Shown here piece by piece: positions 7,410-64,000 of a DNA stretch of 64,000 bases. Position numbers and translations under genes: made by a program. The notes beneath the pieces are model-generated. The model saw only the letters and a program-made list of their open reading frames with translations, was not told the origin of the DNA and made no database searches. This DNA comes from a virus (lineage: Duplodnaviria; Caudoviricetes): positions 1-64,000 of the IMG/VR virus record IMGVR_UViG_2690315628_000002; one strand, written 5' to 3'. Every line of letters starts with the position of its first letter. The first letter of the stretch is position 1.

Positions 7410-8609
7410 ATGCCATTGTCCGACCTCAAATGTCGCAACGCAAAGCCTGCTGAAAAGGACTATAAGCTCGCAGATGCAGGGCGGTTATATCTTCTTGTTC
7501 GCCCGAACGGGTCCAAACTCTGGCGCATGAATTATCAGTTTGCCGGAAAGCAAAAGACTCTTTCTATCGGAGCATATCCGTCCGTCTCGCTGGCCGACGC
7601 GCGGCAGTCTCGTGAGATCGCGAAGGAGCATTTGGCACATGGACGTGATCCTGCTCTAGCCAGTGCGGATCATCCCGAACGCAGATTTAAGATCGTCGCG
7701 ACAAACTGGTGGGATGCTCGGCGGAAAAGATGGAATGCCGTCTATGCTGAACGGATTTGGAGCCGATTGGAAAATCGGGTGTTTCCTCGTCTCGGCGAAC
7801 TGGACGTAACCAAGATTGCAGCGCGAGACATCCTCGCTCTAATTAAAGAAATCGAGGTCGAGGGAAAGCACGATCTAGCCCGCCGCGTGCGTCAATATGT
7901 GAGCGGCGTGTTTCGATTTGCAATTGCTTCCGAGATCACCGCAACAGACCCGTCCGCCACGGTGATCGATGCGATGGAGTCGAGGCCGAAAACAGTTCAC
8001 CGCGCCGCTATTCGTGAGGAAGAGTTGCCGGAATTTTTCCGACGCCTCCGCAATTACAACGGAGAATCACAGACAGCGCTGGCACTCGAACTTCTGATCC
8101 ACACAGCGGTCCGGTCCAAGGAGCTTCGCCTTGCGACGTGGTCAGAGTTCGATTTCGAGAAGAAGATCTGGCGGATACCGGAAGAGCGAATGAAAATGAA
8201 AAAGGAACACTTCGTTCCTTTGAGCAAGCGCGCCATCGAAATCCTGTATGAACTGAAGGAAATCGCTGGCGATAGTGATTTGATAGTGCCGAGCCCCGAC
8301 AAGGTGGCTCAACCAATATCGAACAACACAATGCTGTATTACCTGTATCGACTCGGCTACCACAGCAAGGCGACAGTGCACGGGTTTCGCAGCACATTCT
8401 CTACGATCGCAAATGAGTCCGGTCTTTGGCGCGAGGATGCGATCGAGACGCAGTTGGCTCATTCTGAGGAGGATGAAAGTCGGGATTCGTACAATGCCGC
8501 TCTGTACCTCTCTGAGCGGACCAGGATGATGAAGTGGTACAGCGAGAAGCTTGTCACCTTGTCAAAGAAGGTCCCCAATCGAGACGACTTGCTTGAGGGG
8601 CTTCTTTGA
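7410..8609 (+). CDS. int: Tyrosine integrase (P4-like, with arm-binding domain)
   Basis: N-terminal KDYKLADAGRLYL...GSKLW arm domain; catalytic R (AVRSKEL), HGFR, LAH and Y. Confidence 0.95.
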   Translation: MPLSDLKCRNAKPAEKDYKLADAGRLYLLVRPNGSKLWRMNYQFAGKQKTLSIGAYPSVSLADARQSREIAKEHLAHGRDPALASADHPERRFKIVATNWWDARRKRWNAVYAERIWSRLENRVFPRLGELDVTKIAARDILALIKEIEVEGKHDLARRVRQYVSGVFRFAIASEITATDPSATVIDAMESRPKTVHRAAIREEELPEFFRRLRNYNGESQTALALELLIHTAVRSKELRLATWSEFDFEKKIWRIPEERMKMKKEHFVPLSKRAIEILYELKEIAGDSDLIVPSPDKVAQPISNNTMLYYLYRLGYHSKATVHGFRSTFSTIANESGLWREDAIETQLAHSEEDESRDSYNAALYLSERTRMMKWYSEKLVTLSKKVPNRDDLLEGLL

Positions 8610-8936
8610 AGGCATGTGCAAGCGCAGAAACTCGATCACCTCCGTGGCCGTGTAGAACACATTGATTTCGACACCAACCTCGGCAAACCGTTTGATTTCG
8701 CCGCTTTGCCCCGGTGACAGTCCGCCATCTTTCCGCTTCCGAGCGGCGGGCTTTTTCATCTCGATGAGGAACAGCTTTCCGTATCCTGCGAAGAGGCGAT
8801 CAGGGCAGCCCACGCGACCCTGATACTGGATTTTGCGAACGATCCACGAATTGTTTTCCGCCCATGCTACAGCATCCAGCTCTTCGTTTTTCTCGATTTT
8901 GCGCGTGGCGAAGTCGAAATCGGCGAGGGGCTTCAT
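8562..8936 (-). CDS. VRR-NUC domain nuclease
   Basis: GCPDR...FLIEMK...LSPGQ PD-(D/E)xK pattern; ATGA overlap with the polymerase stop. Confidence 0.85.
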   Translation of the reverse strand: MKPLADFDFATRKIEKNEELDAVAWAENNSWIVRKIQYQGRVGCPDRLFAGYGKLFLIEMKKPAARKRKDGGLSPGQSGEIKRFAEVGVEINVFYTATEVIEFLRLHMPSKKPLKQVVSIGDLL

Positions 8937-10975
8937 GCTGCGACCACCCATGTGCGCAATACGGTTTCCCGGTTTGCTTTGGTGAGGCGGATGCGCTTCA
9001 GCTTCGGGGGCTTCGAACCATAAAAACCGAGATCGCTGAGGATCGTCTCGGTTTCCTCAATGTAGCGATGATAATCGATGTCCTCCGGAAAGTCGTCAGG
9101 GAGGCGCATGCATTCTGCCGCGCCGTCGGTTTTCGGGATTTTCTTGAAATTGCCTGTCGTCTCATGGGGCACGGTGTCATAGATCGCGTCACCATCCGTC
9201 GACCAATAGTATCGGATCGCCTTGCCGAGATACTGGTCGCGCCACGTTGCACCGTTGGCAGCTTTGATGACGGTGACAAACTGGCGGATGTCGCGGCAGG
9301 CCTTGATTGTTTCCTCAATCGGCGTGCCGTGCTTGATGCGAGCCAAGGCAGCGTCGGAGCAGATCGTCATCTGCGGGTTCTTCATCAACTGACCGCGTAC
9401 CGGATCGAAATCAGACTTGTCGGGGTTCCACGGGTTGCCGAGCGGTCCCTTGCGCTTGTGCTTGCCGTCCATCTTGATCGCAAAGTAGCTGTTGACCGAC
9501 TGATTGTAGATGGCCTTGTATTCGCCGAATTCGAGGTCGAAACCGGTGTCGGCTTCCCACTGAGCGCAAACCTGCTGTAGAACCGACGGCTTCAGGCGGT
9601 CTTTCACCATCCCGTCGTACATCTCGCGCGGGCACTGGAAGAGCACACCATCGGTGTTTCCGCTGACTACGTTAATGCCGGCTTCAAGCGCACGTTCGAC
9701 AAGCATCAGAATGGCGAGCTGGCACGTAAGCGTCACAGAAAGCAGCAGGTGAGGTGCATAAAGGATGCTGTACCGGCTGCCGAGCTTCCCGTAGACACCG
9801 TTCAACTGGATCTTACCACCCTTGTCCTTCACCTTGCACTCTTCGAGTTCGCGGTTCAGGGCCGCGATGCGATCGGGATCGTTGACCTTGGGTAGTTCTT
9901 CTTCGATCTCCTTAGCGCGCTTCTTGGCTGCCAGGCGTTCTCTGCGAATGCCATCGTAGGCTTCTAGGAATTCCGGGCCCAGTGACCGCGGATATAGACC
10001 GAGCATGAGGATCGCGGCCGGATACTGAGACGCCACGTCCGCATCGATGAGGATGTGCGTGTCTGTCGAGAAGGTCGCCCGGTTGGACTCGGTAGTGTGA
10101 ATGCCTCCGATCCCGAACTGATACACCTCCGTGCCGAGCTTGATCTGTGCAGCGTCCGTTGACATCCATTTCGGCGACGCAGTCTTTCCGTCGGCCTTGA
10201 CGACGAATTCTGTTTCGCGGACGCGCTCGAGCAGTTCCTGTAGGACAGGGGTGCGAAAGGAGACCCAATCAGGAACCGGATATTTGAACGTGGTTCCGGG
10301 TTTCGTCTCGACCTTTTTGACCTTGCGGCCGGTGATCTCTTCGACGCGGGTTTTGACGATCGCTTCGCCGATCTGGCTGTCCGATTTGGACATGAAGTTG
10401 CGATTGTAAACTGCTCCTAGTGCGCGGCGCAGTTCCATCGGTTCGCGCAAGGCGTTCCAGAGATTATGCGTGGCATCAAGATCGGAGTGGAGGCAGTAGT
10501 TGGCGACGATGTCCATCTGCTCGTGGGTCAGATGCATGTCGGGAGGGAAAGGCAGGTCTTGGAGCTGCTTGCCGTGCATGCGCCCGTTGAGGGACTTCAG
10601 GCTCGCGAACGCGTTGGGCTGCGGCTCGGAGAGGTCAATATGGAGTTTCTTGACCTCGAAGGGGATATTGATCCCGAGGAACTCTTCGGCTTCCCACCAC
10701 TGGATGTTACCTTCGATGAGGCGGTCGCTGGCGCGTTTGAGATGTGCGTTGGTGACGTGTTCCTGTAACGAGTACCAGATCATCGGAACGTCGTAGGATA
10801 AGCTTCGATATCCGACCGTGGTATGCTTCTTCAGAACTGAGCGCACATATCTGCGGTCATAGTTCGATGACCGTGAGCTGAGTTCAACGCCGACACGCTT
10901 GCCGTCTTCTTCGCGCTTGAAGCCGATATAGAAGAAATCGTGATAACACTCAATGTCGGTAAAAATCACACTCAT
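8933..10975 (-). CDS. Phage DNA polymerase, family B-like
   Basis: Exo I DIE; motif A DADVASQYP; motif B KIQLNGVYG; motif C variant GNTDG. Confidence 0.85.
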   Translation of the reverse strand: MSVIFTDIECYHDFFYIGFKREEDGKRVGVELSSRSSNYDRRYVRSVLKKHTTVGYRSLSYDVPMIWYSLQEHVTNAHLKRASDRLIEGNIQWWEAEEFLGINIPFEVKKLHIDLSEPQPNAFASLKSLNGRMHGKQLQDLPFPPDMHLTHEQMDIVANYCLHSDLDATHNLWNALREPMELRRALGAVYNRNFMSKSDSQIGEAIVKTRVEEITGRKVKKVETKPGTTFKYPVPDWVSFRTPVLQELLERVRETEFVVKADGKTASPKWMSTDAAQIKLGTEVYQFGIGGIHTTESNRATFSTDTHILIDADVASQYPAAILMLGLYPRSLGPEFLEAYDGIRRERLAAKKRAKEIEEELPKVNDPDRIAALNRELEECKVKDKGGKIQLNGVYGKLGSRYSILYAPHLLLSVTLTCQLAILMLVERALEAGINVVSGNTDGVLFQCPREMYDGMVKDRLKPSVLQQVCAQWEADTGFDLEFGEYKAIYNQSVNSYFAIKMDGKHKRKGPLGNPWNPDKSDFDPVRGQLMKNPQMTICSDAALARIKHGTPIEETIKACRDIRQFVTVIKAANGATWRDQYLGKAIRYYWSTDGDAIYDTVPHETTGNFKKIPKTDGAAECMRLPDDFPEDIDYHRYIEETETILSDLGFYGSKPPKLKRIRLTKANRETVLRTWVVAA

Positions 10976-11178: not shown

Positions 11179-11388
11179 ATGAATGATAGTCTTATGAGGG
11201 TGACCGACGTGTCGAAGGTGACGACCTTATCCCGCGCCGAAATTTACCGCCGAGTGAAGGCCGGCACCTTCCCCGCGCAGACGCGCATTTCCCATCGCTT
11301 CTCAGCCTGGAACAGGCGTGACGTTGAGCAGTGGATCGCAAACACCACACGCCGTCCGAATGTCGATCTCACTGACCTACTGGTGTGA
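11179..11388 (+). CDS. alpA: AlpA-family excisionase/regulator
   Basis: LMRVTDV...TLSRAEIYRRVKAGTFP...W winged-helix signature; GGAG RBS. Confidence 0.85.
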   Translation: MNDSLMRVTDVSKVTTLSRAEIYRRVKAGTFPAQTRISHRFSAWNRRDVEQWIANTTRRPNVDLTDLLV

Positions 11389-11391
11389 GCC

Positions 11392-12093
11392 ATGGTCGAT
11401 CTCAGTGATTTGATGGGTGGCGATGAGCCTACTGGCCGTCCTAGAGGTCGGCCGACGAAGGCCGAGGCCGAGGCACGGCTGCAGAAGCAGATGCAGGAAG
11501 ACCTCCCGCATTACACCGAGTTCCGTAAGCCCGTCGGTGTGATGTTCATCGCGAACGTGGTCGGCAAGCAGCCGAAGCAAATCCAGAAGCGACTGGAAAA
11601 GTGCCCGGTATCGAAATGGGCCACCCACGGCGGCAAGCAGGTGCCGTTCTACGATTTCATGACTGCCATGTCCTATCTCGTGCCGCCGCGCGGGAGCATC
11701 GAGGACTGGTTCGCTCAGCAGAATGCCGCCAGCCTACCGCCCTATGTCAACAAGATGTGGTGGGACTCCGCTCACCAACGAAACCGAGTGATGCTGGCGT
11801 CGGGTGATCTCTGGCATACCGAAGACGTGATGCTTGTTCTCGGGCGCGTCGCGATGATGATCCGCCAAGACGTGAAGATGTGGATCGAAGACCTGCCGGA
11901 GAAGGAGTTGCTCAGCAACAAGCAGTATGGCGCCTTAGTCGATGCCACAAACCGGCTTGTTGAAGAAATCCGCAAGACGCTCGTAGAGATGCCTCGCGAA
12001 ACCCTTTCCATGACCGCACACATCAAGAGCGAGCTGGATAGCAGCGGCCGGATGATTGATGATGCTGACCGGCCTGCGGGAGATGATGAGTGA
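11392..12093 (+). CDS. Terminase small subunit (DUF1441-like)
   Basis: Position upstream of a GpA-type terminase; N-terminal HTH-like region and helical C-terminus (WWDSAHQR...GDLWHTEDV). Confidence 0.65.
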   Translation: MVDLSDLMGGDEPTGRPRGRPTKAEAEARLQKQMQEDLPHYTEFRKPVGVMFIANVVGKQPKQIQKRLEKCPVSKWATHGGKQVPFYDFMTAMSYLVPPRGSIEDWFAQQNAASLPPYVNKMWWDSAHQRNRVMLASGDLWHTEDVMLVLGRVAMMIRQDVKMWIEDLPEKELLSNKQYGALVDATNRLVEEIRKTLVEMPRETLSMTAHIKSELDSSGRMIDDADRPAGDDE

Positions 12094-12902
12094 ACGCTCC
12101 TCTTCCCGGCGACACAATTGTAGTCTGGTTCTCGAATGGCGCCGCCAGTGCCGTTGCCGCGTGGGAGACTATCCGTCGCTACGGCGCGATTTGCGACGTT
12201 CGCGTTGTAAACAATCCGATTATTGAAGAAGACGAAGATAATCTTCGGTTTCAGACTGACGTTTCTCGGTGGTTAGGTCTGCCGATCATCCTTCATGGAA
12301 ACCCCGAGTATCCTTCTAATTCCGCTGTCGACATATGGGAAAAACGCAAGGCAATGGTGTTTCCGAAAGGGGCACCGTGTACAGTTCACGGGAAAAAAGA
12401 AGCGCGGCAGGACTACGAAAAGCATCATCGAGTTGACTGGCACGTATTCGGGTTCACTGCTGACGAACGGGATCGCCACGAGCGGTTTGTCTTAACCGAG
12501 CGCGACAATGTTTTACCGGTCCTGATTGATGGAAACTACACAAAAGACGACTGTGCATCGCTGCTGCAATTCTTCCGAATAGCGCTCCCTCGGATATATA
12601 GCCTTGGGTTCCCGAATGCCAACTGCAAGGGCTGCGTGAAGGCTACGAGCCCCACGTACTGGAATCTGGTTCGTCGCATATTTCCTGATGTTTTCGCTGC
12701 CCGCGCCGAGCAATCTCGCCGTCTTGGAGTTCGCCTAGTTCGTTACAAAGGCGAACGGATTTTCCTAGACGAGCTGCCTCCGGATGCTGTTGGCCGCCCT
12801 CTTAAAACGATGCGCATTGAATGCGGAATCGTCTGCGAGGAAGACCCGACAGGTGACCGTGAGGAATACTTCAATGTTACAGAATGGTTGTTGGCCGCAT
12901 GA
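12090..12902 (+). CDS. PP-loop / PAPS-reductase-like protein
   Basis: VVWFSNGAASAV PP-loop-like motif; Cys motifs APCT, NANCKGCVK, ECGIVC. Confidence 0.6.
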   Translation: MNAPLPGDTIVVWFSNGAASAVAAWETIRRYGAICDVRVVNNPIIEEDEDNLRFQTDVSRWLGLPIILHGNPEYPSNSAVDIWEKRKAMVFPKGAPCTVHGKKEARQDYEKHHRVDWHVFGFTADERDRHERFVLTERDNVLPVLIDGNYTKDDCASLLQFFRIALPRIYSLGFPNANCKGCVKATSPTYWNLVRRIFPDVFAARAEQSRRLGVRLVRYKGERIFLDELPPDAVGRPLKTMRIECGIVCEEDPTGDREEYFNVTEWLLAA

Positions 12903-15344: not shown

Positions 15345-15572
15345 ATGGCGACAATCGCCGAATTACAGGGTTGGCTACGAGAGGCTGAAAAAGCCCTCCA
15401 CGAACTGTTGACCGGTAAAGGTGTCGCCGAGGTTCGTGACAGCAACGGCGAGTCCGTCCGCTATACGATGGCAAACGTCTCTCGCCTTCGTCAGTATATT
15501 GAAGATCTCAAAGCCCAAATCGCAGGACAGCCGAGAACCCCGCATCGTGTCATGAGGCCGACGTGGGGATGA
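15345..15572 (+). CDS. Head completion protein, gpW-like
   Basis: EAEKALHELLTGK...SVRYT..N...LRQYI pattern; between terL and portal. Confidence 0.85.
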   Translation: MATIAELQGWLREAEKALHELLTGKGVAEVRDSNGESVRYTMANVSRLRQYIEDLKAQIAGQPRTPHRVMRPTWG

Positions 15573-17260
15573 GAGCGGCTGTTGATCTTTCAGACCTGAT
15601 CGGAACCGCCGCTGATGTCTCCACAGCGGTTGCCGATGCGGTGCGTCCGCCCGGTGCTACGGCGGCAGCATCGGGCGGTGTTGCCTATGACGGCGCATCG
15701 AAAGTTGACCGGCTTGCTCGTTGGCAGCCCGCAATCCGTTCTGCTGACGCGGAAATCCTTCCTGAAAAACAAAACCTTGACGCGCGAGCGCGCGACACAA
15801 TTCGCAACGATGCATTTGTGTCCGGTGGCGCTGACATCTATCGCGACTCGATTGTTGGTTCTCGTTATCAACTGAATGCCCGCCCCGAGACGAAGGTCTT
15901 GTGGGGCAAAGAGGATGCGAAGTGGGAAGAAGAGTTTCAGGAAGAAACTGAGACCAAGTTTATGCTGTGGGGCGAAAGCCAGCAGAAATGGTCAGACGCT
16001 GCCCGTATCAATACCTTCACTGCACAGGTCCGTCTCGGTGTCTGCACGTTCTTCGGCGGCGGGGAAATTCTGGCAAGCGCCGAATGGATGCCGGCTGATG
16101 GTCGCCCATACCGTTCCGCCGTGCAGATGATCGACCCTGATCGGCTTTCCACTCCGATGGACAAGCTCATGCAGGATTGGTCTCGCATCCGAAACGGCGT
16201 TGAGCGTGACCGTCGCGGTGCTCCGATCGCCTACCACATTCGGAATTCCCATCCGAACGACGGCCCGTATCACGATTTCTCCAACCTCTCCGACATGAAC
16301 TGGACACGGGTCCCGGCTCGCAACCGGTGGGGTCGACCTATGATTCTGCACGTCTACGAGCAGGACCGGCCCGACCAGTCCCGCGGCGTGTCCGATATCG
16401 TTTCGGCACTGTCCGAAATGCGGATGACGAAGCATTTCCGTCGCACGGAGCTGGAACGCGCTGTCGTTGCAGCCAGCTACGCAGCTTCGGTCGAGTCGGA
16501 AATCCCTGACGATGTCTTGGCGGCCCTTGGCGGACAGCCTCCCGAGGGTAATGCCACGGTCGAATGGATGACCGCATATCTCGATGCGATCGCGGCGTAC
16601 AATTCCAATGCAACGAACTTACACATGGACGGAGCGAAGATACCCGTATTCGCTCCAGGTACAAAGCTCAAGATTCAGAACACCGGAGCCACCGGTCCAC
16701 TTGGCGACAAATACGAGCAGAGCCTTTTGCGCTACATCGCAGCCGCGCTCGGTCTTTCCTACGAGCAGTTCTCGCGCGATTTCACGCAGACAAACTATTC
16801 GTCGGCTCGCGCATCGATCGGCGAAACGCAGAAGGGCATGAATGCCAAGAAGGCGATTGCAGCCGACGGCGTCGCCAACTTCATTTATCGCCTCTGGCTT
16901 GAGGAAGCGATCAACAAGAACGACCTCGAATGCCTCAAGCGAAAGAACGTCCCACTCTTTTACGAGGGGTTGAACGCCGAGGCGTACTGCGCATGCGAAT
17001 GGATCGGCGCAGGGCAGGGCCAGATTGACCCGCTCAAGGAAACTCAGGCCGCTGTTCTCAAGGTCAAGAGCGGTTTTTCCACGAAGGAAGCCGAGATCGC
17101 GAAGATGAGCGGTGGCGACTATCGCCGTGTCGCGCGACAGATCCAGCGTGAGCGCGAACTGGACAGCTTCTACGGCAACCCGTCGATCTACGACAGCACC
17201 GACACCAAGGACATGGAAAACTCACTGTCCGCCACACCAAGAGAAGGAGAGGCGGCGTGA
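15569..17260 (+). CDS. Portal protein, lambda family
   Basis: ARARDTIRND, RPDQSRGV, NYSSARAS, IDPLKE motifs. Confidence 0.93.
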   Translation: MRAAVDLSDLIGTAADVSTAVADAVRPPGATAAASGGVAYDGASKVDRLARWQPAIRSADAEILPEKQNLDARARDTIRNDAFVSGGADIYRDSIVGSRYQLNARPETKVLWGKEDAKWEEEFQEETETKFMLWGESQQKWSDAARINTFTAQVRLGVCTFFGGGEILASAEWMPADGRPYRSAVQMIDPDRLSTPMDKLMQDWSRIRNGVERDRRGAPIAYHIRNSHPNDGPYHDFSNLSDMNWTRVPARNRWGRPMILHVYEQDRPDQSRGVSDIVSALSEMRMTKHFRRTELERAVVAASYAASVESEIPDDVLAALGGQPPEGNATVEWMTAYLDAIAAYNSNATNLHMDGAKIPVFAPGTKLKIQNTGATGPLGDKYEQSLLRYIAAALGLSYEQFSRDFTQTNYSSARASIGETQKGMNAKKAIAADGVANFIYRLWLEEAINKNDLECLKRKNVPLFYEGLNAEAYCACEWIGAGQGQIDPLKETQAAVLKVKSGFSTKEAEIAKMSGGDYRRVARQIQRERELDSFYGNPSIYDSTDTKDMENSLSATPREGEAA

Positions 17261-20497: not shown

Positions 20498-20907
20498 TGA
20501 ACTGGCGGGAAAGGAAGCGCGAGCATCTGCTTCCAGTCCATGAAACCTTCTCGATTCCCGCGGTGTATCTCACCCACGCCGCGGGAATTCCCGTGCCCGT
20601 CAATATTCGGCTCCATCAGCGTCCCGCGGTTATTGAAGCGCAGGGAGAGGACGGAACCGGACAGATCATCGACATCGTCGATCGCGTTATCTTTAAAGTC
20701 GCGGAAGTGGCTAACGTGGTTACGAGCGCCTTCGTCATTCTCAGTGATTCCGAGGCATATGTGACCGGCCCAAGCCGCCCGGAACGTGAGGGTTTCGTCT
20801 GGGTCGAGGTTCGGACTGCCACCAAAGCAGAGTTGGTAAGCTTGCTGTCCCAGGTCGATACCGCGGGCGACGAGTGGAGGGGCATCCCGCCATGGTCGCA
20901 GCAGTAA
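20497..20907 (+). CDS. Head-tail joining protein
   Basis: Synteny; coupled start (TGATG). Confidence 0.6.
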   Translation: MNWRERKREHLLPVHETFSIPAVYLTHAAGIPVPVNIRLHQRPAVIEAQGEDGTGQIIDIVDRVIFKVAEVANVVTSAFVILSDSEAYVTGPSRPEREGFVWVEVRTATKAELVSLLSQVDTAGDEWRGIPPWSQQ

Positions 20908-21503
20908 TTGCCATTGAATTCGATCAGCTTTCGTTCGTGGATGAAATGACGAACTCGACCGAACTGGCACTGGTCCGTGCTCTTAACACGACAGCGACGC
21001 GTGATCGTACCAAGTTTGCTCGTGCGGCCCGAGACCAAGTGGCGTTCCCGGCGTCTTACGTTTCTCCTTCCAGCAAGCGCCTTTGGGTGAAGACGAAGGC
21101 GAAACGTAACGCGCTTGAAACCGTGATCGAGGGCAGGGGGGCTGCAACGTCGCTGGCCCGTTTTACCAAGCAGAAGCCACTCGCGGGCGGTCAACGCCAC
21201 AAGGGCGGAAAGATCAATGTGACGGTGAAGCCGGGGCAAACCCGTTCCATTCGCCGGGCATTTCTCATGCGCCTGAAGAACAATAACGTCGGACTTGCTG
21301 TGAGGACAGACGGCTCGTTGCCGCAGGGTGCTTACAAACCACGATCATTGGGAAAGAACCTCTGGCTTCTTTACGGTCCGTCTGTCGACCAGGCTCTCCG
21401 CGCTGCATCAGATGGCGGCGGTATCTATGAGGAGATGACGCCTGAGTCGTTGGACTTCCTCGAGAATGAATTTTTCAGACAGTTGGAGTTGTTGAATGGG
21501 TGA
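20892..21503 (+). CDS. Tail completion protein (gpZ-like)
   Basis: RALN...LYGPSVDQ pattern; basic; synteny. Confidence 0.65.
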   Translation: MVAAVIAIEFDQLSFVDEMTNSTELALVRALNTTATRDRTKFARAARDQVAFPASYVSPSSKRLWVKTKAKRNALETVIEGRGAATSLARFTKQKPLAGGQRHKGGKINVTVKPGQTRSIRRAFLMRLKNNNVGLAVRTDGSLPQGAYKPRSLGKNLWLLYGPSVDQALRAASDGGGIYEEMTPESLDFLENEFFRQLELLNG

Positions 21504-43896: not shown

Positions 43897-43906
43897 AGGA
43901 ATACTT

Positions 43907-45045: not shown

Positions 45046-45094
45046 TTCAACTCCTAATGATTGGAAATCACGTAAAACGTGAAATATAAGCGCG

Positions 45095-45601
45095 TCAAGA
45101 AGCGACTGGTTTGCCTTCAAGTCCACCATCGATGAACGACTTCGCGCCGGACAGGTGGGCCGGTCGAAGATGGTTCTTCCCGCTTTCAGTAAACGGCGGA
45201 ACTCCCTCCGGATACTTCGCGAAAATTTCGTCGACGACACGCTGAAGCTCTACACGAACGGCTTCTAGGTTCGCTTTCGGCGGTCGGTCGTCGTTCAACT
45301 GCTGCTGGATCATCGCGTCGCGCAGGACCACGAGGCTGCTGATGGCTTTGGTGATGTGGGACAGCTTGCTATCGTCGTCGATGTCTTCGCCTTCCCACCA
45401 CTGCATGATGTGTCCCATCGCAGCGTCGACGTAGACCGATGCTTTGACACCAGATACGCGATAGTTATGCCTACCGTATTTCGCTGCGCCTTCCAGCATC
45501 GCGACACCAACTTCGCACATGACGGTCATCGGAACCGTTGCAAACTGCCGCCACTTCCTGATGCCGAAGCCGTCTTTTGGGTTCGTTTCCTTGGTGCTCA
45601 T
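45095..45601 (-). CDS. dATP/dGTP diphosphohydrolase-domain protein (DUF5664-like)
   Basis: TNPKD...[11 protein letters not shown]...H...WWEGED.D..S...H pattern. Confidence 0.75.
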
Positions 45602-45810
45602 TGGCGGGCCTCCGCGGCGAGTGCCTCGCGGACACGATCAAAAGCTTCCCACACATTCTCGTTGTGGACCGGCTGAACATTGTGTTCGGCACCATCGCGC
45701 ATGCGCACGGTCACATGCCCGGAGCTATAGTAGCACTGGACGCTCTGCACGTAGCGAGGATTGACGCTGGTGGTCTTCGTGATCTCGACGAGCGCCATGG
45801 CAATCACCAC
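45598..45810 (-). CDS. Hypothetical protein
   Basis: Coupled small ORF. Confidence 0.55.
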   Translation of the reverse strand: MVIAMALVEITKTTSVNPRYVQSVQCYYSSGHVTVRMRDGAEHNVQPVHNENVWEAFDRVREALAAEARQ

Positions 45811-46349
45811 TTCTTGCCGTTTGCAGCAAGCCTGGCCTCGTTCTTGTGATCGGCGCGAACAGCGTTGTATTCTCGCTTCTCCGTAACTGCGCCGTCGACA
45901 TCATAGCCGAACTTCGCGGCATAGGCGGCGATCGTCGCGAGGACGCGGGTGATTTCGATTCCGACACGAACGTGCCAGTTCGACTCGATGAGGTTGCCGA
46001 CGCCCGTGACAAGCCGCACGATCGCAAATAGAGCTTCTGCGCGGTTGTCGCTGAGATCGATTGCGAGCCCTTCCGGATCGACGAGCTTAAATCCACAGCC
46101 GCCAGCGAAATCGAAGAGTCTGATCTTGGCGTCGGCCAATTCCACTTCCGCCATCTTGCGGTGGGGCAGGTGGTCATCCATGAGATCCTTCCGCTCGCCT
46201 TCCATGGCTTCGGAAAGTTCGCTGACGACCAGCATCAGCATCTCGCCCTTGTTTCGGTCCAGACGCTCACCGGTCGCCGGGTCGCGCCACCAGTGGGCAT
46301 TGGAGGCGTGAATTTCAGCGGCAATGCTGTTTAAGTCGATCATTTCCAC
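45804..46349 (-). CDS. MazG-like NTP pyrophosphohydrolase
   Basis: SELSEAMEG...EVELAD..IR..D and EKREYN..R motifs. Confidence 0.75.
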   Translation of the reverse strand: MEMIDLNSIAAEIHASNAHWWRDPATGERLDRNKGEMLMLVVSELSEAMEGERKDLMDDHLPHRKMAEVELADAKIRLFDFAGGCGFKLVDPEGLAIDLSDNRAEALFAIVRLVTGVGNLIESNWHVRVGIEITRVLATIAAYAAKFGYDVDGAVTEKREYNAVRADHKNEARLAANGKKW

Positions 46350-46547: not shown

Positions 46548-47147
46548 TCAAGATAAAAGTGAAACAATTGGCCGCAGATCGTCTATCCACGTTACGAGCG
46601 GATCACCAGGCTTCTCATGCGACCGATTGTGGGACCGACGGACCATAAATGAGTTATGGCCACAGTCGTGCCCGGAGAGCGCATGGGTGTAATTGTCCTC
46701 GATCCAGACGCCACGCTCAAGGATACCGAGCCACTTCTTTTTGCTTTCTCCGAGCGGCAGGCAGATAACCTGCTCGAAGATGTCGCCGAAGATGAGATCG
46801 AGATTGAACTTACGCCGCGCGACCACCACGGGATTGTCGGAGCAACTGGTCAGGACCGAGAGCCGATGACCCATCTCTTTGAGCACCGAAACATTTTCGA
46901 TTGCATGGGGGCATGCTTCAAGATTGGCGAACTGGGAACTGTGGTTGAAGCCGGCAACCATTTCACGCGATGCTGCCGGCGTCAGGCCGAGCCAACCGCT
47001 CATGTCCCATGAGTCGGGGAGCCCTTTGATTTCTCGGTTTTCGATAGAAGACACAAAGCGCTTGAAACCGCCAAGCCAGTCTAAAAGAACGTCGTCGCAG
47101 TCCAGGATGATGTGGAGGTTTCGGTTCTGGCGATGGAAGTCGATCAT
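46548..47147 (-). CDS. HAD-family 5'(3')-deoxyribonucleotidase-like protein
   Basis: LDCDDVL, LTS, WIEDN, HN motifs. Confidence 0.75.
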   Translation of the reverse strand: MIDFHRQNRNLHIILDCDDVLLDWLGGFKRFVSSIENREIKGLPDSWDMSGWLGLTPAASREMVAGFNHSSQFANLEACPHAIENVSVLKEMGHRLSVLTSCSDNPVVVARRKFNLDLIFGDIFEQVICLPLGESKKKWLGILERGVWIEDNYTHALSGHDCGHNSFMVRRSHNRSHEKPGDPLVTWIDDLRPIVSLLS

Positions 47148-48070
47148 GCCTGCAACTCCAGTTGACGACGAAACTGGCGGAAGCCGACGAAATTGCCGTG
47201 TTCTTCGCTGTGCTTCCAGCACGCGGCAGCTTTGAATGCGGGGCGTTCGAAATGGTAAGCTAGGTCTTCGTACTCATCAGCCTGCGCGACATGCTCAAAC
47301 GGGCTGGCATGGAAGGGCTTCGAGAACAGCTTGTCATAGATCGCCGTGGCGCGGCCGAGCGACATGTCGAAACCGTCCGTCGTCTTGTAGGAAGTGCTGG
47401 CACAGCGGGCGACGGAGACTTTGCGCAGAGTTTCGACGCCGATGTTGTGATCACCGCCACTAGCTTCATAAAGCAAGTCCTCGTCGAAGGTGGTGATAAA
47501 CGGCATGTGCCATTGTCCCGGCTTGAGCGTCTGCACCGTGGACTCGTCCTCAAGGCACTTCCGAATCTCAAGGGCAAGCATTTGGATGTGCGGCTCTGCG
47601 TCCCTGTGGTCTCGCAGTTCGAGAAAGTTGTCCCATTCCGTCGACGACACAAGCACAGTTATGTGGAGAAACGGTTCGAGCAGGCGGTTGATGACCTGCT
47701 TGTGGTAGCCGGCGTTATCGAAAGCTGTGGCGATACGAATAGCTTCATCTCGCGCCCATAGCCATGCTCGTTCGCGGGAAACGCCTCCTGGCACAATGAG
47801 AGGCAGAGGCGCGTCGCATTCCTGATCGGCCTGCATACCCTTCTGCGCAGCTCCCCAATGGATCGGCATAGCGGTGTCGGCGAGGATATCGTCGATCATC
47901 TTTTTCACCGGGATCGCACGGCTGCTGGCCGCATTCCGGCTGAACACGCGATGCGTCATGAACTCGGCATGGATGAACCGCGGATAGCGCAGCAGAAGCG
48001 TCGAAAGCACCTTGTCTGGTGCACTAGCGTTACGGCTGCGCAAGATTGTTTTGGCGGAAATTGTGGTCAT
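47144..48070 (-). CDS. thyX: FAD-dependent thymidylate synthase
   Basis: THRVFSRNAASSRAIP, NFLELR...A, HASPFEH. Confidence 0.85.
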   Translation of the reverse strand: MTTISAKTILRSRNASAPDKVLSTLLLRYPRFIHAEFMTHRVFSRNAASSRAIPVKKMIDDILADTAMPIHWGAAQKGMQADQECDAPLPLIVPGGVSRERAWLWARDEAIRIATAFDNAGYHKQVINRLLEPFLHITVLVSSTEWDNFLELRDHRDAEPHIQMLALEIRKCLEDESTVQTLKPGQWHMPFITTFDEDLLYEASGGDHNIGVETLRKVSVARCASTSYKTTDGFDMSLGRATAIYDKLFSKPFHASPFEHVAQADEYEDLAYHFERPAFKAAACWKHSEEHGNFVGFRQFRRQLELQA

Positions 48071-48969
48071 TCCTCGGTTTCCTTTGCTTGGCTCGCGGTG
48101 GCATTGTCGATCGCATCCCTGAGCGATTTGCCGGTCCAAAAATGTTTACCGACGTGGACCAACCACTCGCGCGTCGCATCGTCTTGTGAAATTGAAACGG
48201 AAGTGTGCGTGCCGTTTTCAACGTAGCCACATAGATCGCGCAAGGCGTCCAGGCGAACCGTGTCTCCGAGAAGCGGCTTCGGTTTCTCACCGGCATCCAT
48301 GTGTTTCGCGGTGGCGCGCTTTTTCCCTTCCGCCTGCGCCTTGTCGATGGCACGCGTCAGATCGCCAGCGGCTTTCACACCGTCGCCGCCGTGTTTCTTC
48401 AACGTGGCCATGGCGAGCGTCGCAGCGACCTGACCTGCGGCCACCAGAGTGGTGACAGCAGCCGGCGCGGCCTGCAGTTCAAGAAGCTCGACGATCCACT
48501 GGCGAGCGAGACCGGTCTTCTGCTGGATATCTTTTTCCGTCCACCCGAGATCGATGAGACGCTTGAAGACGCGCGCCTGTTCGATGGGTGTCAGCGGCTT
48601 GCCGGAATTACGCACGATCTGGCTGAAAACGCGGTCCGCCTCGCTCGAATAACGATCTTCGGTCTGGACCGGAACGCTTTTGATTTCGGCTCCGAGGTGC
48701 TCGATCGCATACATCGTCGCACCGTGACGGCGATGACCGTCGGAGATGAACGCCTTACCATCTTCCGTATAGACGGTGAGTGCCTGCTTGACGCCGACCT
48801 GCGAGATGGATTCAGCGAGCGCCAAATCTTCCGCGTCGTCCGGATTGAAGTTGACGCTGCGGCAGTTCCAGTCGACCTTCACATGCAGGTCGCGCGGGTC
48901 CATGCGGTAGATGTCGGAGCGTCCAACGGCGAGCGATTTGATGACGCCCTGATTTGAAGTTGCAGTCAT
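48067..48969 (-). CDS. ParB/Srx-like N-terminal domain protein with HTH
   Basis: LAESI...GV.Q, SDGHRR, LTPIEQA, GWTEKDI..KTG. Confidence 0.75.
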   Translation of the reverse strand: MTATSNQGVIKSLAVGRSDIYRMDPRDLHVKVDWNCRSVNFNPDDAEDLALAESISQVGVKQALTVYTEDGKAFISDGHRRHGATMYAIEHLGAEIKSVPVQTEDRYSSEADRVFSQIVRNSGKPLTPIEQARVFKRLIDLGWTEKDIQQKTGLARQWIVELLELQAAPAAVTTLVAAGQVAATLAMATLKKHGGDGVKAAGDLTRAIDKAQAEGKKRATAKHMDAGEKPKPLLGDTVRLDALRDLCGYVENGTHTSVSISQDDATREWLVHVGKHFWTGKSLRDAIDNATASQAKETEE

Positions 48970-48978: not shown

Positions 48979-49257
48979 TCACACGAGCAGGTCGTCGAGA
49001 TCGACCGGCGTTGGTTTGACAGGCGGAGTGTCGATCAGGTCATCTAGGTCGACGATTGGTTTGGTGGAGGGCGGCGCGGTAGCGATCCGCCACGTAGCAC
49101 CGAAGTGTCTGACACCCCGGCCGTCCTCGACGAGCACATTGGTTTCGCCGTAGTGCTTGATGACCACACCGTCGATCGGCTCAAGTCCATAGGCGTTGCC
49201 GTATGTTACCTTCGTGCCGACGGGCCAGAGTACGTTGGGGCGATTTTCCGCTGCCAT
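48979..49257 (-). CDS. Hypothetical protein with two VDLDDL motifs
   Basis: SH3-like small domain plus Pro-rich tail; coupled start. Confidence 0.65.
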   Translation of the reverse strand: MAAENRPNVLWPVGTKVTYGNAYGLEPIDGVVIKHYGETNVLVEDGRGVRHFGATWRIATAPPSTKPIVDLDDLIDTPPVKPTPVDLDDLLV

Positions 49258-49352
49258 CACAGCATCCCTATGAGTAAAAGGATCCGCAGCGTGGAAAGCA
49301 GAAGGAACCATGCAGCGAGACCGAGGACCGACAAGATGAGAACTGTCCTCAT
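49257..49352 (-). CDS. Putative 31-aa hydrophobic peptide
   Basis: MRTVLILSVLGLAAWFLLLSTLRILLLIGML; start/stop overlaps on both sides. Confidence 0.45.
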   Translation of the reverse strand: MRTVLILSVLGLAAWFLLLSTLRILLLIGML

Positions 49353-53995: not shown

Positions 53996-54406
53996 TCATC
54001 GCGTGCTCCGCACTGGACGGAGATTGCGGCCGACTGCCTCGCGCTTGGCGGGGTAGCTGCGGATGGAATGACGAATGGTCGTATGATCCCGCCCACCGAG
54101 GTACATGCCGATCTCGGCGAGGCTCGACGTGGTTCTACGCACCATCCAGTAGCAGCAGGCCTGTCGCACCAGGACGACATGCTTCTGCATACGGTCGCTC
54201 GTGATCGTTTCAGCCGAAAGACCGGTGCGCTTGCAGAATAGTGCGAGGATCCGTTCCTTGGTCGTCATCAGGCGAGTGGGTTCGACGATGAGCAGCGTCT
54301 TCGGCTTGCTGGCGATGTTGATGACCTTCGGTGCGCCGTAGATGCGCCGACGGACGGCGGCATAGCGCGCCAGTAGTTCCTCCGCTGTCTTGGGTTCAGG
54401 CTTCAT
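53996..54406 (-). CDS. Stand-alone DnaA C-terminal (domain IV) HTH protein
   Basis: RQ...Y...R.T.SSLAEIG..LGGRDHTTI.H DnaA signature. Confidence 0.85.
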   Translation of the reverse strand: MKPEPKTAEELLARYAAVRRRIYGAPKVINIASKPKTLLIVEPTRLMTTKERILALFCKRTGLSAETITSDRMQKHVVLVRQACCYWMVRRTTSSLAEIGMYLGGRDHTTIRHSIRSYPAKREAVGRNLRPVRSTR

Positions 54407-56567: not shown

Positions 56568-57743
56568 TCAACTCATTACGTTAGCAAGCAAAGCCGCCCC
56601 ATACAAAGCAATCCCAATCGAGACCGGCATGAAATACCATTTGCCGCGCAACCGTTCCCATAGGCCTGAATCCGGCTTATAGGTCACTTCATTCGATACC
56701 GTCGGCACGGTTGCCGGTTGAACGGCTGGACGCGCCACGCCAACACTATGCAGCGGTTTGGAGCCACGAGACACGGCAACCTTGCAAGCCGGCATAGGCG
56801 CGCCGCTGGCGTTCGGCACGGACACAATAGCTTGCCCGGTTCCAAGTCCCGCAATGTCGGCAGCCGTGATATTGCCCGGCATGGTATCGGCTGCCGCCTT
56901 CAATGCCTTTTGGTGGACTGGAGTCGAGCCGCGCAACGCGTGCTGGATCCGCGTGGCCAATTGCCCGCTAATGACGTGCGGCAGGTCAGACGGCGCTTGC
57001 GTCACATAAATCAGGCCGACTCCCTTGGATCGAATAAGCCGCGTGATTTGCTCGATACGTTGCACAATGGCAGGGCTTGCGCCGTCGAAAACCAAATGCG
57101 CCTCATCGATCATGACCATCAGACCAGGCGTGCCAGCGTCGCCAATTTCACCGAGACCGCGATAAAGCGATTCCAGCACATGCGCGACAAATGCGCCATA
57201 GAGGCCGGGCAGGTGGGTTAGGTCTGAGGCCGCATAAACGGTTATGCCTGCCGTGTCCCTTGGATCATGCCGGGCACTGCCAAAAGCCCATGCCGCGCCG
57301 CGCTCGAGCCGCAACATGGCACGTTGAACGGCAGAAACGGAAACAGGCGATATCAGGCCGTATGAAACGGACAGGTTTACCCGCGTGGCGTCGTTCAGGA
57401 GCTGGCGCAAGTCCTGCAGCGTGGCGACGGCGCGACCGGTATCTTCAGCCCATGCAAGAGCAATGGCCAATGCGCCCGCTTGCGCCTCCGATAGGTTCAG
57501 GGCGCGTGCGATCAAGTCCGCCCCCAAATCATCGATGCGCATTTGCGGGCATATCAGAGATGAGCCTAGCGACTCCAAGTCGCCTTTAGCATCCAGCACC
57601 AAAACCGGACACGGGCAGCGTTCCGCGATCGCTCCTAGCGTCGTGGTTTTACCCGTGCCCGTGGCGCCGAAAATGCCGACATGGCGCGGCAGATACCGGT
57701 AGGGAATCTGTGCGCCCGGTCCGATGGAAAGGGAATAGGTCAT
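56568..57743 (-). CDS. HerA-like (DUF853/YjgR-type) ATPase with C-terminal TM
   Basis: GATGTGKTTTL, LDAKGD, MIDEAH, LIRSKGVG...VTQAPSD. Confidence 0.8.
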   Translation of the reverse strand: MTYSLSIGPGAQIPYRYLPRHVGIFGATGTGKTTTLGAIAERCPCPVLVLDAKGDLESLGSSLICPQMRIDDLGADLIARALNLSEAQAGALAIALAWAEDTGRAVATLQDLRQLLNDATRVNLSVSYGLISPVSVSAVQRAMLRLERGAAWAFGSARHDPRDTAGITVYAASDLTHLPGLYGAFVAHVLESLYRGLGEIGDAGTPGLMVMIDEAHLVFDGASPAIVQRIEQITRLIRSKGVGLIYVTQAPSDLPHVISGQLATRIQHALRGSTPVHQKALKAAADTMPGNITAADIAGLGTGQAIVSVPNASGAPMPACKVAVSRGSKPLHSVGVARPAVQPATVPTVSNEVTYKPDSGLWERLRGKWYFMPVSIGIALYGAALLANVMS

Positions 57744-61692: not shown

Positions 61693-61767
61693 CAACGAAA
61701 CGACTTTTGATGCGTAATACTGTAACGTTTGGCAGAGAAAATGGGATAAAATCGAACAGGGAAACCG

Positions 61768-62205: not shown

Positions 62206-62232
62206 GAAATGCGACTGAAACGATGATCGATT

Positions 62233-64000
62233 TTATTCCAACTGCTCCGGTCGGGTGTATATGCGGCATTTTCCGTATTTCTTGTTCAATTCGTGGCCGC
62301 TCACCGGTCCCTTGGACCTATCCCAACCAACGAGCTGCAGCGCCTTACCAATCTTAATTGCGCTCGTGTGTGGGATATCGCCATCGCGCCCCATCATTTC
62401 TCGCCAGACCTGCGACATGCAGGTTTCGTTCCGGTAGACCTTGGGAATGTCGTCGTCCAGATCGTCAAATTCTGCCCCAAGCGGTGTGTCCAGCCATGCA
62501 GTGATCACGCCAGCCAATTCTTCTTCCGGCGTCTCTACGCGTCGGCTTTCCTGCATTTCGAGGGCGATCTGCGCGGCTTCGTGTTTCATGTAAAGCGGCA
62601 GTGCTGGCAGATGTGCGTAATCCTTCGACATCTGCTGATAGATCGACACCGCCTCGGCCCAAATCTGCATGACGTTGGCCCGGAATTTCAGATTGTCGAT
62701 CTGCCTGTCGCCGGGAAGGTTGCAGACGATAGGCCAGAAGCGCCGGCCACCGGTCTGGTCTCGCAGGTACTCGCGGTCGTTGGTCGATCCGATGAAGATG
62801 CACTGGCGACCGAACTCTTTCGCGCGCTTCTCCCACGCCAGGCGGGCTTTGTCGTGCGTGCGGCTAACGAATGCCTTCAGGTCGTTGACCTCGGATCGCT
62901 GCATGGCGGAAAGCTCACCCAGTTCAAGGATCCATTTGCCCTGCATCACCTCGATCATCTGCTTTGGGTCACCAACATCGCCGGTCAGTTCACCATACCA
63001 TTGGAGCCCTAGGACTTCGATGAAGGTGGATTTACCCTTGCCCTGAACACCTTCCAGGATCGGGACGAAATCAAACTTGTGACCGGGCTGGAAGATGCGC
63101 GCCACGGCGCCGACGAGGGTGAGTAGGGCGGCTTGTCGGTTGTAGGTGTTGTCCTCGCAGCCGAGATAGTCGACGAACATCGTCTCTGCGCGGGGAACAC
63201 CGTCCCATTCGACGGACGTGATGACTTCCTTGACCGGGTGAAACGTCCGCTTGTGCGCGGCCATGTCGATCGCGCCGCGTAAATCACGGTCGGAAACCTT
63301 GATGCCGTAGCCTTGAAGCTGCGTTTTGGTCTCGATCAGCGATCTGATGGCGATATCGTGGCTGTCGGTCCAGTTGTCTCCGTTCAGGTCGTCTTTTACC
63401 CGCCAGATCGAACTGTCGAGGTTGACTGGCTCGTAGGCAGCGTCGCGCTTCTTTTTCGCCCGCTTAGGTGCTGCTCGAAGCACCACTTCCTGTGCAAATT
63501 CGTTGAAATGGGCGATCCCGCGGACGCGCAGATCGTTTTCTACAATGAGATTGATATTCGGAAGGGTGGTCTTTAACTCGCCTTCCTCGTTGCGATGAAA
63601 TCGCTGCATCCAGTTGGGGTCGACCTCGTCGACAATCTCCGCTTTCGCGGGAACTGGGGAGGGCCCGTCGCCTAAAAGGTCGGCGAGATCTATGACCGGT
63701 TTGTCAAAGTCAGTTTCGATGTCGATGTCGAGATCGAGATCCTGCGACATGCGATTACTGTTTGCCGCCTGGATCAGCGTGCGGAAGGTGACCGGGTGCG
63801 GCTTGCCCTTGAAGGAATTCCACCTGACCTCGGAATATTTACGATCAAACTTGGCAGATTGCTCGGACCAGTCGCACCAGGCCTCGAAGCCTTCATCCTC
63901 GCCACGGAACTGGTGATGGAAGGCCATGCCGACGGTCAGCCAGTAATCGCGATCTTCGACCCAGTCTTCCGGCAGGTCGTCGAGGATGGCTTGAATTTCT
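62233..64000 (-). CDS. Primase/helicase with PriCT-2 and VapE domains (5' end outside window)
   Basis: W..VGMA.HH...W.DWS..S.K PriCT-2; ILEGVQGKGKST, ELGEL, GSTN...YLRDQTGGRRFWP. Confidence 0.9.
   Translation of the reverse strand, partial: EIQAILDDLPEDWVEDRDYWLTVGMAFHHQFRGEDEGFEAWCDWSEQSAKFDRKYSEVRWNSFKGKPHPVTFRTLIQAANSNRMSQDLDLDIDIETDFDKPVIDLADLLGDGPSPVPAKAEIVDEVDPNWMQRFHRNEEGELKTTLPNINLIVENDLRVRGIAHFNEFAQEVVLRAAPKRAKKKRDAAYEPVNLDSSIWRVKDDLNGDNWTDSHDIAIRSLIETKTQLQGYGIKVSDRDLRGAIDMAAHKRTFHPVKEVITSVEWDGVPRAETMFVDYLGCEDNTYNRQAALLTLVGAVARIFQPGHKFDFVPILEGVQGKGKSTFIEVLGLQWYGELTGDVGDPKQMIEVMQGKWILELGELSAMQRSEVNDLKAFVSRTHDKARLAWEKRAKEFGRQCIFIGSTNDREYLRDQTGGRRFWPIVCNLPGDRQIDNLKFRANVMQIWAEAVSIYQQMSKDYAHLPALPLYMKHEAAQIALEMQESRRVETPEEELAGVITAWLDTPLGAEFDDLDDDIPKVYRNETCMSQVWREMMGRDGDIPHTSAIKIGKALQLVGWDRSKGPVSGHELNKKYGKCRIYTRPEQLE

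Follow-up and report, generated by a model that had tools for sequence, protein, structure and literature searches.

The idea that one short peptide can direct several different proteins to a common partner is already known in phages, from the tails of T7 replication proteins, the clamp-binding tails of T4 and capsid-targeting sequences. In T4, gp43, gp33 and gp55 have C-terminal clamp-binding tails that are read by one ring-shaped hub, and in bacteria the C-terminal tip of SSB (single-stranded DNA-binding protein), D-D-D-I-P-F, recruits many genome-maintenance proteins. Phage docking peptides are known for two or three clients (T7 tails, T4 clamp tails and the T4 capsid-targeting sequence). 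In this report we focused on IMG/VR record IMGVR_UViG_2690315628_000002, a contig of 72,516 bp that its source classes as a complete provirus; its first 64 kb are the stretch presented here (the window) and the remaining 8.5 kb were also analysed. We performed a computational analysis of a peptide tag, (V/I)DLxDL(L/I/M), which marks roughly a fifth of the proteins of this phage across its integration, replication, DNA modification and packaging modules.

The first important finding in this analysis is that the tag is common to about 18 otherwise unrelated proteins—the small terminase TerS, the leader of the portal, the integrase, an AlpA-family protein, four methyltransferase families, nucleases, the primase-helicase, SSB and small early proteins—which fall in different Pfam/PHROG families and carry it at the N end, at the C end or in a linker. 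In a six-frame translation of the whole contig, the strict pattern [VI]DL.DL[LIM] has exactly seven matches (11362-11382, 11395-11415, 15581-15601, 42439-42459, 48985-49005, 49033-49053 and 63673-63693), all seven in the frame of a long open reading frame (ORF) and none in any other frame. Per-ORF shuffles of 86 ORFs predict 0.012 strict matches, with a maximum of two, and 0 of 5000 shuffles reach seven. The looser pattern DL[LIM] occurs in the last eight residues of 10 of the 86 ORFs, against a shuffle mean of 0.40 (again, 0 of 5000 shuffles reach 10) and against 0.38 ORFs predicted from interior 8-mers. These counts are conservative because the 86-ORF set omitted two tagged small ORFs, 44404-44745 and 43907-44158, in favour of an antisense reading. 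The core of the tag spans six to seven residues, every strict copy lies outside the limits of Pfam domains, and the flanks are not distinctive in composition (disorder-type residues, 0.31-0.93 versus 0.50 in the background). A first-pass annotation, made by inspection of the sequence, had described the tag in about 11 unrelated proteins, outside their folded domains. The tag is therefore real and larger than it had claimed; the Pfam limits agree with that placement for the strict copies, the six-frame scan recovers every one of the seven exactly where it had put them, the weaker copies it had listed are all present (integrase, 8562-8951, 44155-44400, 44404-44745, 43907-44158 and the second methyltransferase copy), and the enrichment over a shuffled background that it had suggested looking for is found for strict and C-terminal copies alike.

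It is the peptide, and not the underlying DNA, that is selected, because the copies differ in their synonymous codons to roughly the extent expected from codon usage and are set in flanks that bear no relation to one another. For the four invariant D/L positions of the seven strict copies, pairwise codon identity is 0.52, 0.48, 0.71 and 0.19, where the codon usage of the contig predicts 0.52, 0.23, 0.52 and 0.23, and the 30 bases flanking the copies are 30% identical. This bears out the argument from differing codons by which the first-pass annotation had preferred selection on the peptide to a DNA repeat. We accordingly rejected a DNA or RNA repeat at gene junctions as the source of the tag, since each of the seven copies reads in frame on the coding strand, with varied codons and unrelated flanks.

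The second important finding is that the tag persists in relatives in variants that are specific to each genome. Among portal orthologues from viral and bacterial contigs (43-100% identity), 26 of 27 have an acidic-hydrophobic-L-G element in their first ~20 residues, for example MSEFDLTDLLGP, MIDTDLTDLLDA, MTRRSIEDLLGI and MKVYAPDIEELLGG, a count in which one locus (L025) is doubtful and from which a truncated one (L018) is excluded; the N-terminal tag of TerS is found in 17 of the 17 orthologues listed. The carriers common to all the alphaproteobacterial relatives examined are TerS and the portal, whose tags vary together. In three complete proviruses with portals 68-73% identical to the one here, the tag is at the orthologous ends of the integrase, the VRR-NUC-like nuclease, the N6-methylase, the C5-methylase, the exonuclease and the 113-aa ORF 44404-44745 (ORF113), and the primase linker is also tagged, with one or two tandem copies. 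Persistence of the motif while the flanks drift, which the first-pass annotation had proposed to look for, is thus seen for the portal, TerS, integrase, nuclease, methylase, primase and ORF113. While the window has (V/I)DLxDL(L/I/M), the variant is DLSDLL in the relatives G003 and G004, DF(S/D)DILG in G009 and, among the annotated genes of phage RcPescado, TDL(S/T)D(L/I)(F/L) on the integrase, TerS, portal, a methylase and small proteins. In G007 it is DDFDxLL, on about 11 proteins including the integrase, C5 and MT-A70 methylases, TerS and portal; there, a PAPS-reductase-like gene in the interval between TerS and TerL and an endonuclease-VII-like gene in the interval between TerL and gpW are both tag-ended. 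Pseudomonas phage PspYZU01 has EL(E/D)DL(I/L) on its portal, DUF2800 protein and two small proteins. Within one phage, unrelated proteins thus resemble each other more closely in their tag than orthologues do across phages: in a partly hand-curated list of tag instances, tag identity is 0.59 within a genome versus 0.38 between genomes, a gap that 0 of 5000 label permutations reach. Such an excess of within-genome likeness is the signature expected of a single shared partner, and it is not accounted for by homogenisation of the DNA, codon identity being near the prediction from codon usage.

The reach of the tag extends well beyond the closest relatives. A core, (D/E)(D/E)-L-(L/I)-G, is found again in Casjensviridae whose hosts are alpha-, beta- and gammaproteobacteria, including Ruegeria phage DSS3-P1 (portal, TerS, primase and DUF2800), Achromobacter phage AchV4 (portal, TerS and DUF2800) and PspYZU01. 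The tag of the primase-helicase, in a linker in this contig, is at the C end in G006, DSS3-P1, AchV4 and Chi, and across the wider family a C-terminal copy is carried most constantly by the DUF2800 exonuclease and the primase. Salmonella phage Chi (NC_025442), of the same family, is without this tag and has a common tail of its own, (D/E)n-EV at the C end, on its primase, gp4, exonuclease, SSB, TerS, gp18 and a PAPS reductase, with near variants on its helicase (VWDDEE) and a second PAPS reductase (MWDEI). The N end of the Chi portal is strongly basic and untagged. In an 8.7-Mb Mesorhizobium host genome, four of the five DNA matches encoding DL(S/T)DLLG lie inside a prophage; the host proteome thus does not use the motif habitually, and host proteins with the same motif, which might have pointed to a host hub, were not seen in Mesorhizobium. 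In lambda, a six-frame scan with the seven-residue tag pattern gives a single match, inside gpA and at no protein end, while a partial list of lambda termini that we inspected includes tag-like C ends on gpC and Nu1, the Nu1 tail LIPGLL resembling the portal leader TIPTLL (IPxLL). We gave no weight to lambda as a model of a motif common to TerS and portal, as the IPxLL likeness is unmatched in Gifsy-1, PhiR63_2 and Valp1; a scan of viral contigs with lambda gpB was of no use, only copies 99-100% identical being matched.

The individual carriers, whose terminal peptides are given here up to the last residue, illustrate how varied the placement is. The tyrosine integrase (gene 7410-8609), whose catalytic Pfam domain stops at residue 362 of 399, is tagged at its C end with RDDLLEGLL (8583-8606, plus strand); orthologues end NDLTALLA, NDLSALLA, NDLGSLLD and DDFDELLRH, and the RcPescado protein ends TDLSDIFGDTELLV. 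The VRR-NUC-like endonuclease (gene 8562-8951) ends SIGDLL (8565-8582, minus strand). The first-pass annotation had labelled it VRR-NUC, which is backed by a PHROG endonuclease match and by orthologues, ending SDLLV, MLLV and SLLV, but not by a Pfam match. The AlpA-family helix-turn-helix (HTH) protein (gene 11179-11388) has its Pfam domain at residues 5-53 of 69 and ends NVDLTDLLV (11362-11385, plus strand), a tag present in the 86-94%-identical relatives L002 and L005 and absent in nine more distant loci. TerS (gene 11392-12093), with a phrog_141 match covering residues 52-203, begins M-VDLSDLM-GG (tag at 11395-11415, plus strand). Right after this tag (11416-11460) is an AT-hook-like GRPRGRP, and the TerS of relatives retains at this place an arginine-rich G-R-P element (RRRRGRP, KRKRGRPS or RRGPGRPT, among others). 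The lambda-family portal (gene 15569-17260), whose ATG overlaps the upstream stop codon as ATGA and whose Pfam domain begins at residue 50, starts MRAA-VDLSDLI-G (tag at 15581-15601, plus strand), at the position of the annotated 22-residue leader peptide of lambda gpB.

The remaining carriers are on the minus strand or beyond the window. The N6/N4 DNA methyltransferase (ORF 42436-44019), whose Pfam stretch ends at residue 470 of 527, has two tags at its C end (42439-42486, minus strand; YLSDLIGETVDLSDLI), the second copy being YLSDLIG; orthologues end YDLTELLS or HDLTALLY, or have YDLSELLGPDDNDLTSLLD or FDFDDILG followed by a terminal HDILGA. Three small ORFs on the same strand are also tagged. 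The 83-aa ORF 43907-44158 ends DASDDLLV (43910-43933), has no Pfam or PHROG match, and is the least certain gene since it lacks an orthologue in G003-G005 and overlaps the long methylase reading; the 81-aa ORF 44155-44400, also without a Pfam or PHROG match, has a weak tag, SEEELLV (44158-44178); and ORF113 ends IDPDDLLV (44407-44430). The latter is a real gene because its orthologues in G003, G004 and G005 (54-63% identity) are all tag-ended (DDLSDLLV, NDLDDLLV and VEDLLV). Located among these tagged small early genes is the gene for a GapR-like DNA-binding protein (44767-45240, minus strand; PF10073, E = 1e-32), which is 62-67% identical in G003-G005. The 110-aa ORF 48979-49311 (ORF110), without a Pfam or PHROG match, has two tags 16 residues apart in a proline-rich tail (48985-49053, minus strand; KPIVDLDDLIDTPPVKPTPVDLDDLLV), and a gene for a ParB-HTH/KorB-like protein lies directly downstream. 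In the Prim-Pol/PriCT-2/VapE primase-helicase (gene 62233-64653, extending past the window end), the tag is in a linker (63673-63693, minus strand; KPVIDLADLLGDGP). It covers residues 321-327, with PriCT_2 (221-297) before it and the VapE domain (479-702) after it, and orthologues have one or two tandem linker copies, such as NDLSDLLGTDTNDLSDLLGG. Beyond the window are five extra C-terminal carriers: SSB (DNDLLDF), a C5-methylase-like protein (IGDLL), a 64-aa ORF (ADLLGDLL), the exonuclease (SSDLLDGL) and a 174-aa ORF (DDDLLD). Also beyond it, at 64673-68019 of the contig, a second class of tails occurs on one gene cluster: the DUF2800 nuclease ends FDDLD, with (D/E)FDDLD conserved in relatives; SSB ends DF, with DDFDF in relatives; and a 104-aa protein ends TDLIPFLPIP, its orthologues having DDLIPF, like the bacterial SSB tip. 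These three tails may form a separate recombination-module network. Finally, a universal 209-aa neck or tail protein (20874-21503, plus strand) has a tag-like end, FFRQLELLNG, with QLDLLNAL, QMELLRNG and QLDLLEDG in orthologues, which may be a mere structural helix; this structural protein is not among the carriers named in the first-pass annotation. The first-pass annotation had held that the identifiable carriers all act on DNA, which is so apart from the portal.

The pattern is that of a short linear motif—short, outside domains, enriched in unrelated proteins and kept while the flanks diverge. In form it would be an acidic LxxLL-like turn, D-hydrophobic-x-D-L-(L/I/M), mostly closed by a glycine or by the C end. 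On the sequence pattern, it is very probably a docking motif read by one common, putative partner. The phage-wide docking code that the first-pass annotation had envisaged thus gains from the selection on the peptide, the persistence in orthologues and the within-genome likeness, while the hub that it postulated was not itself found. Distribution narrows down the candidates. The proteins present in 12 of 12 relatives are TerS, TerL, gpW, the portal, the S49 protease, the capsid protein, several tail proteins and DUF2800, with SNF2 in 11 of 12, and those that carry the tag are TerS, the portal, DUF2800 and, in places, SNF2. Since the only universal untagged proteins are late ones, a phage-encoded receptor would probably be a late protein; that the partner is a phage late protein at all has, in our judgement, an even chance. 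The DNA polymerase was rejected as a general receptor because phrog_1252 is absent in the tag-bearing G006, G008, PspYZU01, DSS3-P1 and Chi, the last of which encodes another polymerase; the polymerase here is untagged (RTWVVAA), as are its orthologues. The major capsid protein is an unlikely receptor, as the window and G003-G005 share DL(S/T)DLL while their capsid proteins are merely 28-31% identical, and L007, L027 and L016 have the capsid type of the window at 70-81%; the capsid type has thus been swapped without a change of tag. A HerA-like ATPase (56568-57743), the GapR-like protein and the ParB-like protein were rejected as hubs since none is universal among tag-bearing relatives. The analogy with T4 clamp tails, put forward in the first-pass annotation, finds no support in the gene content: the beta-clamp family (PF00712) has no match in the six frames of the contig, in a search whose positive control worked, and no sliding clamp appears in Pfam scans of 49 ORFs. 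The gp45 family (PF02916) has no match either, but its control was also silent and the result is uninformative; the only hint of a clamp loader is a phrog_168 match (E = 8e-4) over the P-loop of the HerA-like ATPase.

Elimination and context lead us, tentatively, to TerL or the packaging motor as the partner, an assignment that is possible but doubtful. Our best guess is that the receptor would be the machine that packages the DNA, its gpA-type large terminase being the first candidate and the portal the next. The tag would dock TerS and would also bring methyltransferases, branch-resolving nucleases, helicases and other DNA enzymes to DNA awaiting packaging, and tandem copies would give avidity on an oligomeric receptor. 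The packaging machine is favoured because the TerS and portal tags are universal in alphaproteobacterial relatives and the terminase-operon enzymes of G007 are tagged, and also because Chi TerS has the same tail as the Chi replication proteins. To our knowledge, the only known common partner of TerS and portal is TerL. No solved structure was found by sequence for relatives of TerL or TerS. In its broadest form, which we offer as a possibility with the odds against it, the proposal is a genome-specific "address code" of Casjensviridae-like phages, in which one tag on TerS, the portal leader, integrase, every DNA methyltransferase, nucleases, helicases, primase, SSB and small early proteins would be read by a single receptor of the late machine, coupling replication, modification, recombination and excision to packaging or else loading enzymes into the head for co-injection, with tag and receptor co-evolving so that each phage reads only its own proteins.

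Several observations weigh against a packaging receptor. TerL, portal and protease diverge together across loci, and co-variation therefore cannot tell these candidates apart. None of the three lambda relatives Gifsy-1, PhiR63_2 and Valp1 has a motif common to the C end of TerS and the N end of the portal, and docking on TerL offers the integrase and AlpA no obvious role. The lambda portal starts with an annotated leader of 22 residues, which the mature protein lacks. The lambda leader is already lost from packaging-competent proheads, which leaves a portal leader poorly placed to meet TerL. In the parts of the published accounts available, the model of the mature lambda portal begins at residue 24, in the wing domain (PMC10721106), and modification of gpB is attributed to the gpC protease (PMC12617516). 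Leader processing in lambda instead suggests the head protease-scaffold as the partner of the portal leader, and hence a capsid-targeting alternative in which the tag would bind the S49 protease-scaffold and the carriers would be loaded for co-injection or marked for late processing. The portal copy sits at the very site of the lambda leader; the protease occurs untagged in all 12 relatives, is similar in sequence to the SppA oligomer, and as an SppA-like oligomer would suit tandem tags; many carriers (methylases, the integrase, small early proteins) would serve the phage as it enters a new cell; and short terminal capsid-targeting sequences are described for T4 IPIII and the P1 methyltransferase-helicase DarB in the excerpt available of one paper (PMC9024508). 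We nevertheless consider this explanation unlikely, for TerS is no capsid component, more than 15 enzymes of up to 806 residues would be a large cargo, and the virion mass-spectrometry table of the Chi-like phages PIN1 and PIN2, as far as it is excerpted (PMC12264135), lists neither primase nor helicase, SSB or terminase, and has an exonuclease for PIN2 alone, although these phages may carry another type of tag. A search of the paper on the RcD-cluster phages for mass spectrometry found none. A T7-like replisome is about as improbable. Here the tags, as the counterpart of the acidic tails of T7 gp2.5 and gp4, would bind the phage polymerase or the T7-type SSB, with TerS and portal drawn into the network. 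The SSB is indeed of the Enc34/T7 gp2.5-type family (PF10991) and ends DNDLLDF, the DUF2800 exonuclease and primase are the most constant C-terminal carriers of the wider family, and the Chi primase, exonuclease, SSB and helicase have one acidic tail in common. In the available portion of the Enc34 paper, such tails mediate polymerase and primase-helicase contacts in T7 and the traceable C end enters the beta-sheet groove of a neighbour in the crystal, but the last 11 residues, where the tag would sit, are disordered. The polymerase is missing from five tag-bearing relatives; the SSB is itself tailed and, by tblastn, has no orthologue in G006, G008 or Chi, yet protein clustering grouped one for G006 and G008; N-terminal and internal copies have no free C end of the kind T7 tails use; and this model leaves portal, integrase and AlpA without a role.

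The three other explanations do without a phage-encoded hub. There may be no single partner at all, if acidic-hydrophobic tails fold onto the DNA-binding surface of their own protein or stick weakly to basic segments, such as the AT-hook of TerS, giving a loose assembly. Nearly all carriers bind DNA, SSB tails compete with DNA on their own protein according to the same portion of the Enc34 paper, the TerS tag is followed by the arginine-rich GRPRGRP and the Chi tail is purely acidic. Electrostatics alone, however, need neither near-identical heptapeptides nor variants that are uniform within and different between genomes, and the L-L-G core is conserved across the family, which makes this reading, too, an unlikely one. 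The tag could also bind a universal bacterial protein—a clamp, chaperone, protease or adaptor—and set the location or lifetime of its carriers. A conserved host protein would permit the core (D/E)(D/E)-L-(L/I)-G across phages of alpha-, beta- and gammaproteobacteria, the positions of clamp-binding motifs (N end, C end and linker) resemble those of the tag, and the lambda counterparts of some carriers are unstable. Set against this, just one of the five strict-motif matches in the Mesorhizobium host is outside the prophage, genome-specific variants are unexpected for an invariant host pocket, and an internal tandem acidic tag would be unusual among the C-terminal degrons we know of. The bacterial beta-clamp consensus is QL(S/D)LF; none of the seven strict copies has the Q, and in each register preserving the last hydrophobic pair the fourth position is taken by D. 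A host hub or degron is, on balance, improbable. Chance, composition or a translated DNA or RNA element at gene junctions could draw on the many copies at gene boundaries and on GTC GAT CTC, which begins three of the seven strict copies. It is contradicted already by the frame (7/7 copies), by shuffles (0 of 5000 composition-preserving shuffles match the counts) and by codons that vary as usage predicts amid unrelated flanks, and the retention of the peptide by orthologues whose DNA has diverged weighs against it further; we regard its probability as negligible.

The genomic setting of the tag is that of a lambda-like phage with a replication block of another kind. The head and packaging module in the window comprises a gpA-type TerL, gpW, the lambda-family portal, the S49 protease and gpD-like and gpE-like proteins, and a small terminase (phrog_141) and the tyrosine integrase are also encoded. 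The replication block is of the Chi/Enc34 type, with a Prim-Pol/VapE primase-helicase, a DUF2800 nuclease, an Enc34/T7-type SSB, a family-A-like polymerase (phrog_1252), the VRR-NUC-like nuclease, an SNF2 helicase and a 3'-5' exonuclease. Among cultured phages, the closest relatives are those of the RcD cluster of Rhodobacter capsulatus (Casjensviridae), with a portal identity of 62%, and prophage relatives were found in Mesorhizobium, Manganibacter and Aquamicrobium; the nearest annotated phage by DNA gives only short matches, of a few hundred bases or less. Gene order differs from that of G003, in which the integrase is followed by a repressor-like gene and the SNF2 helicase, both far right here. 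The contig looks like a circular permutation or rearranged form of the G003 genome plan, and no terminal overlap of the contig was found. At its left end (1-6959), beside the integrase, are three genes without the tag: a KAP-family P-loop NTPase of 1161 aa with weak PifA/QatA-like matches (1-3486) and a HerA (3641-5665) and SIR2 (5622-6959) pair that matches PADLOC defence models very strongly (E = 1e-296 and 2e-220). The HerA_C-like P-loop ATPase mentioned above (56568-57743, minus strand; PF05872, E = 3e-72) is among the best conserved early proteins, with 62-68% identity in G003-G005 and 51% in RcPescado, and is missing from most other relatives. Genes of nucleotide- or DNA-modification type lie at 12090-12902, 45095-46349 and 47144-48139; they include a PAPS-reductase-like gene (phrog_424) between TerS and TerL, a protein with a dATP/dGTP diphosphohydrolase N-domain (PF18909), a pyrophosphatase (phrog_5658) and a weak Thy1-like protein. 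These genes and two DNA methylases jointly hint at modified DNA. Accessory genes encode a PIN_8-domain protein, the ParB-HTH/KorB-like protein and a small protein with a DnaA C-terminal HTH (38456-39868, 48067-48969 and 53996-54406).

The full-text literature searched, the coverage of which is limited, yielded no account of such a tag, whether for phages or for bacteria, in line with the statement of the first-pass annotation that the motif had not been described. The new features are the wide range of clients, the mixture of N-terminal, C-terminal and internal positions, and a genome-specific co-variation that extends through the family. If one receptor reads the tag, that receptor would organise late infection in a manner not described for lambda-like phages, and the tag would be a handle for finding the partners of unknown small proteins, for recruiting or loading foreign proteins and for studying the co-evolution of a motif and its receptor. 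The idea is open to direct test in the cultured RcD-cluster phages, DSS3-P1 and Chi.

Comparison with known systems highlights important similarities and differences. The T7 gp2.5 (SSB) and gp4 (primase-helicase) tails, which bind T7 DNA polymerase, are also a short acidic-hydrophobic terminal peptide common to different replication proteins, and the likeness extends to an SSB of T7/Enc34 type here and to the Chi tail on SSB, primase, helicase and exonuclease. Unlike T7 tails, the tag is also N-terminal and internal; its carriers include TerS, the portal, the integrase, AlpA and four methyltransferase families; and it has a defined L-x-x-L-L-G core and persists in relatives that lack the polymerase. 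Capsid targeting sequences, as the available excerpt describes them for T4 IPIII and for P1 DarB, in its first 30 residues (PMC9024508), similarly use one terminal peptide to send unrelated proteins to a common phage structure; the tag differs in marking TerS and replication enzymes, which would be unexpected cargo and of which the excerpted PIN1/PIN2 table lists almost none. With the leader of lambda gpB, the portal copy shares its N-end position on a homologous portal (35% identity) and an L-L-G element (TIPTLLGPDG), but the lambda leader is not acidic and the Gifsy-1, PhiR63_2 and Valp1 relatives are without L-L-G. T4 clamp tails resemble the tag as acidic-hydrophobic terminal peptides on functionally different phage proteins, whereas the contig has no clamp gene match, its polymerase is untagged and the carriers are far more numerous and varied. 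The bacterial SSB tip is likewise a short acidic-hydrophobic terminal handle in DNA metabolism, and the tail of the 104-aa protein resembles it. Its logic, however, is reversed: in bacteria one carrier serves many pockets, while here many carriers would be served by one expected receptor.

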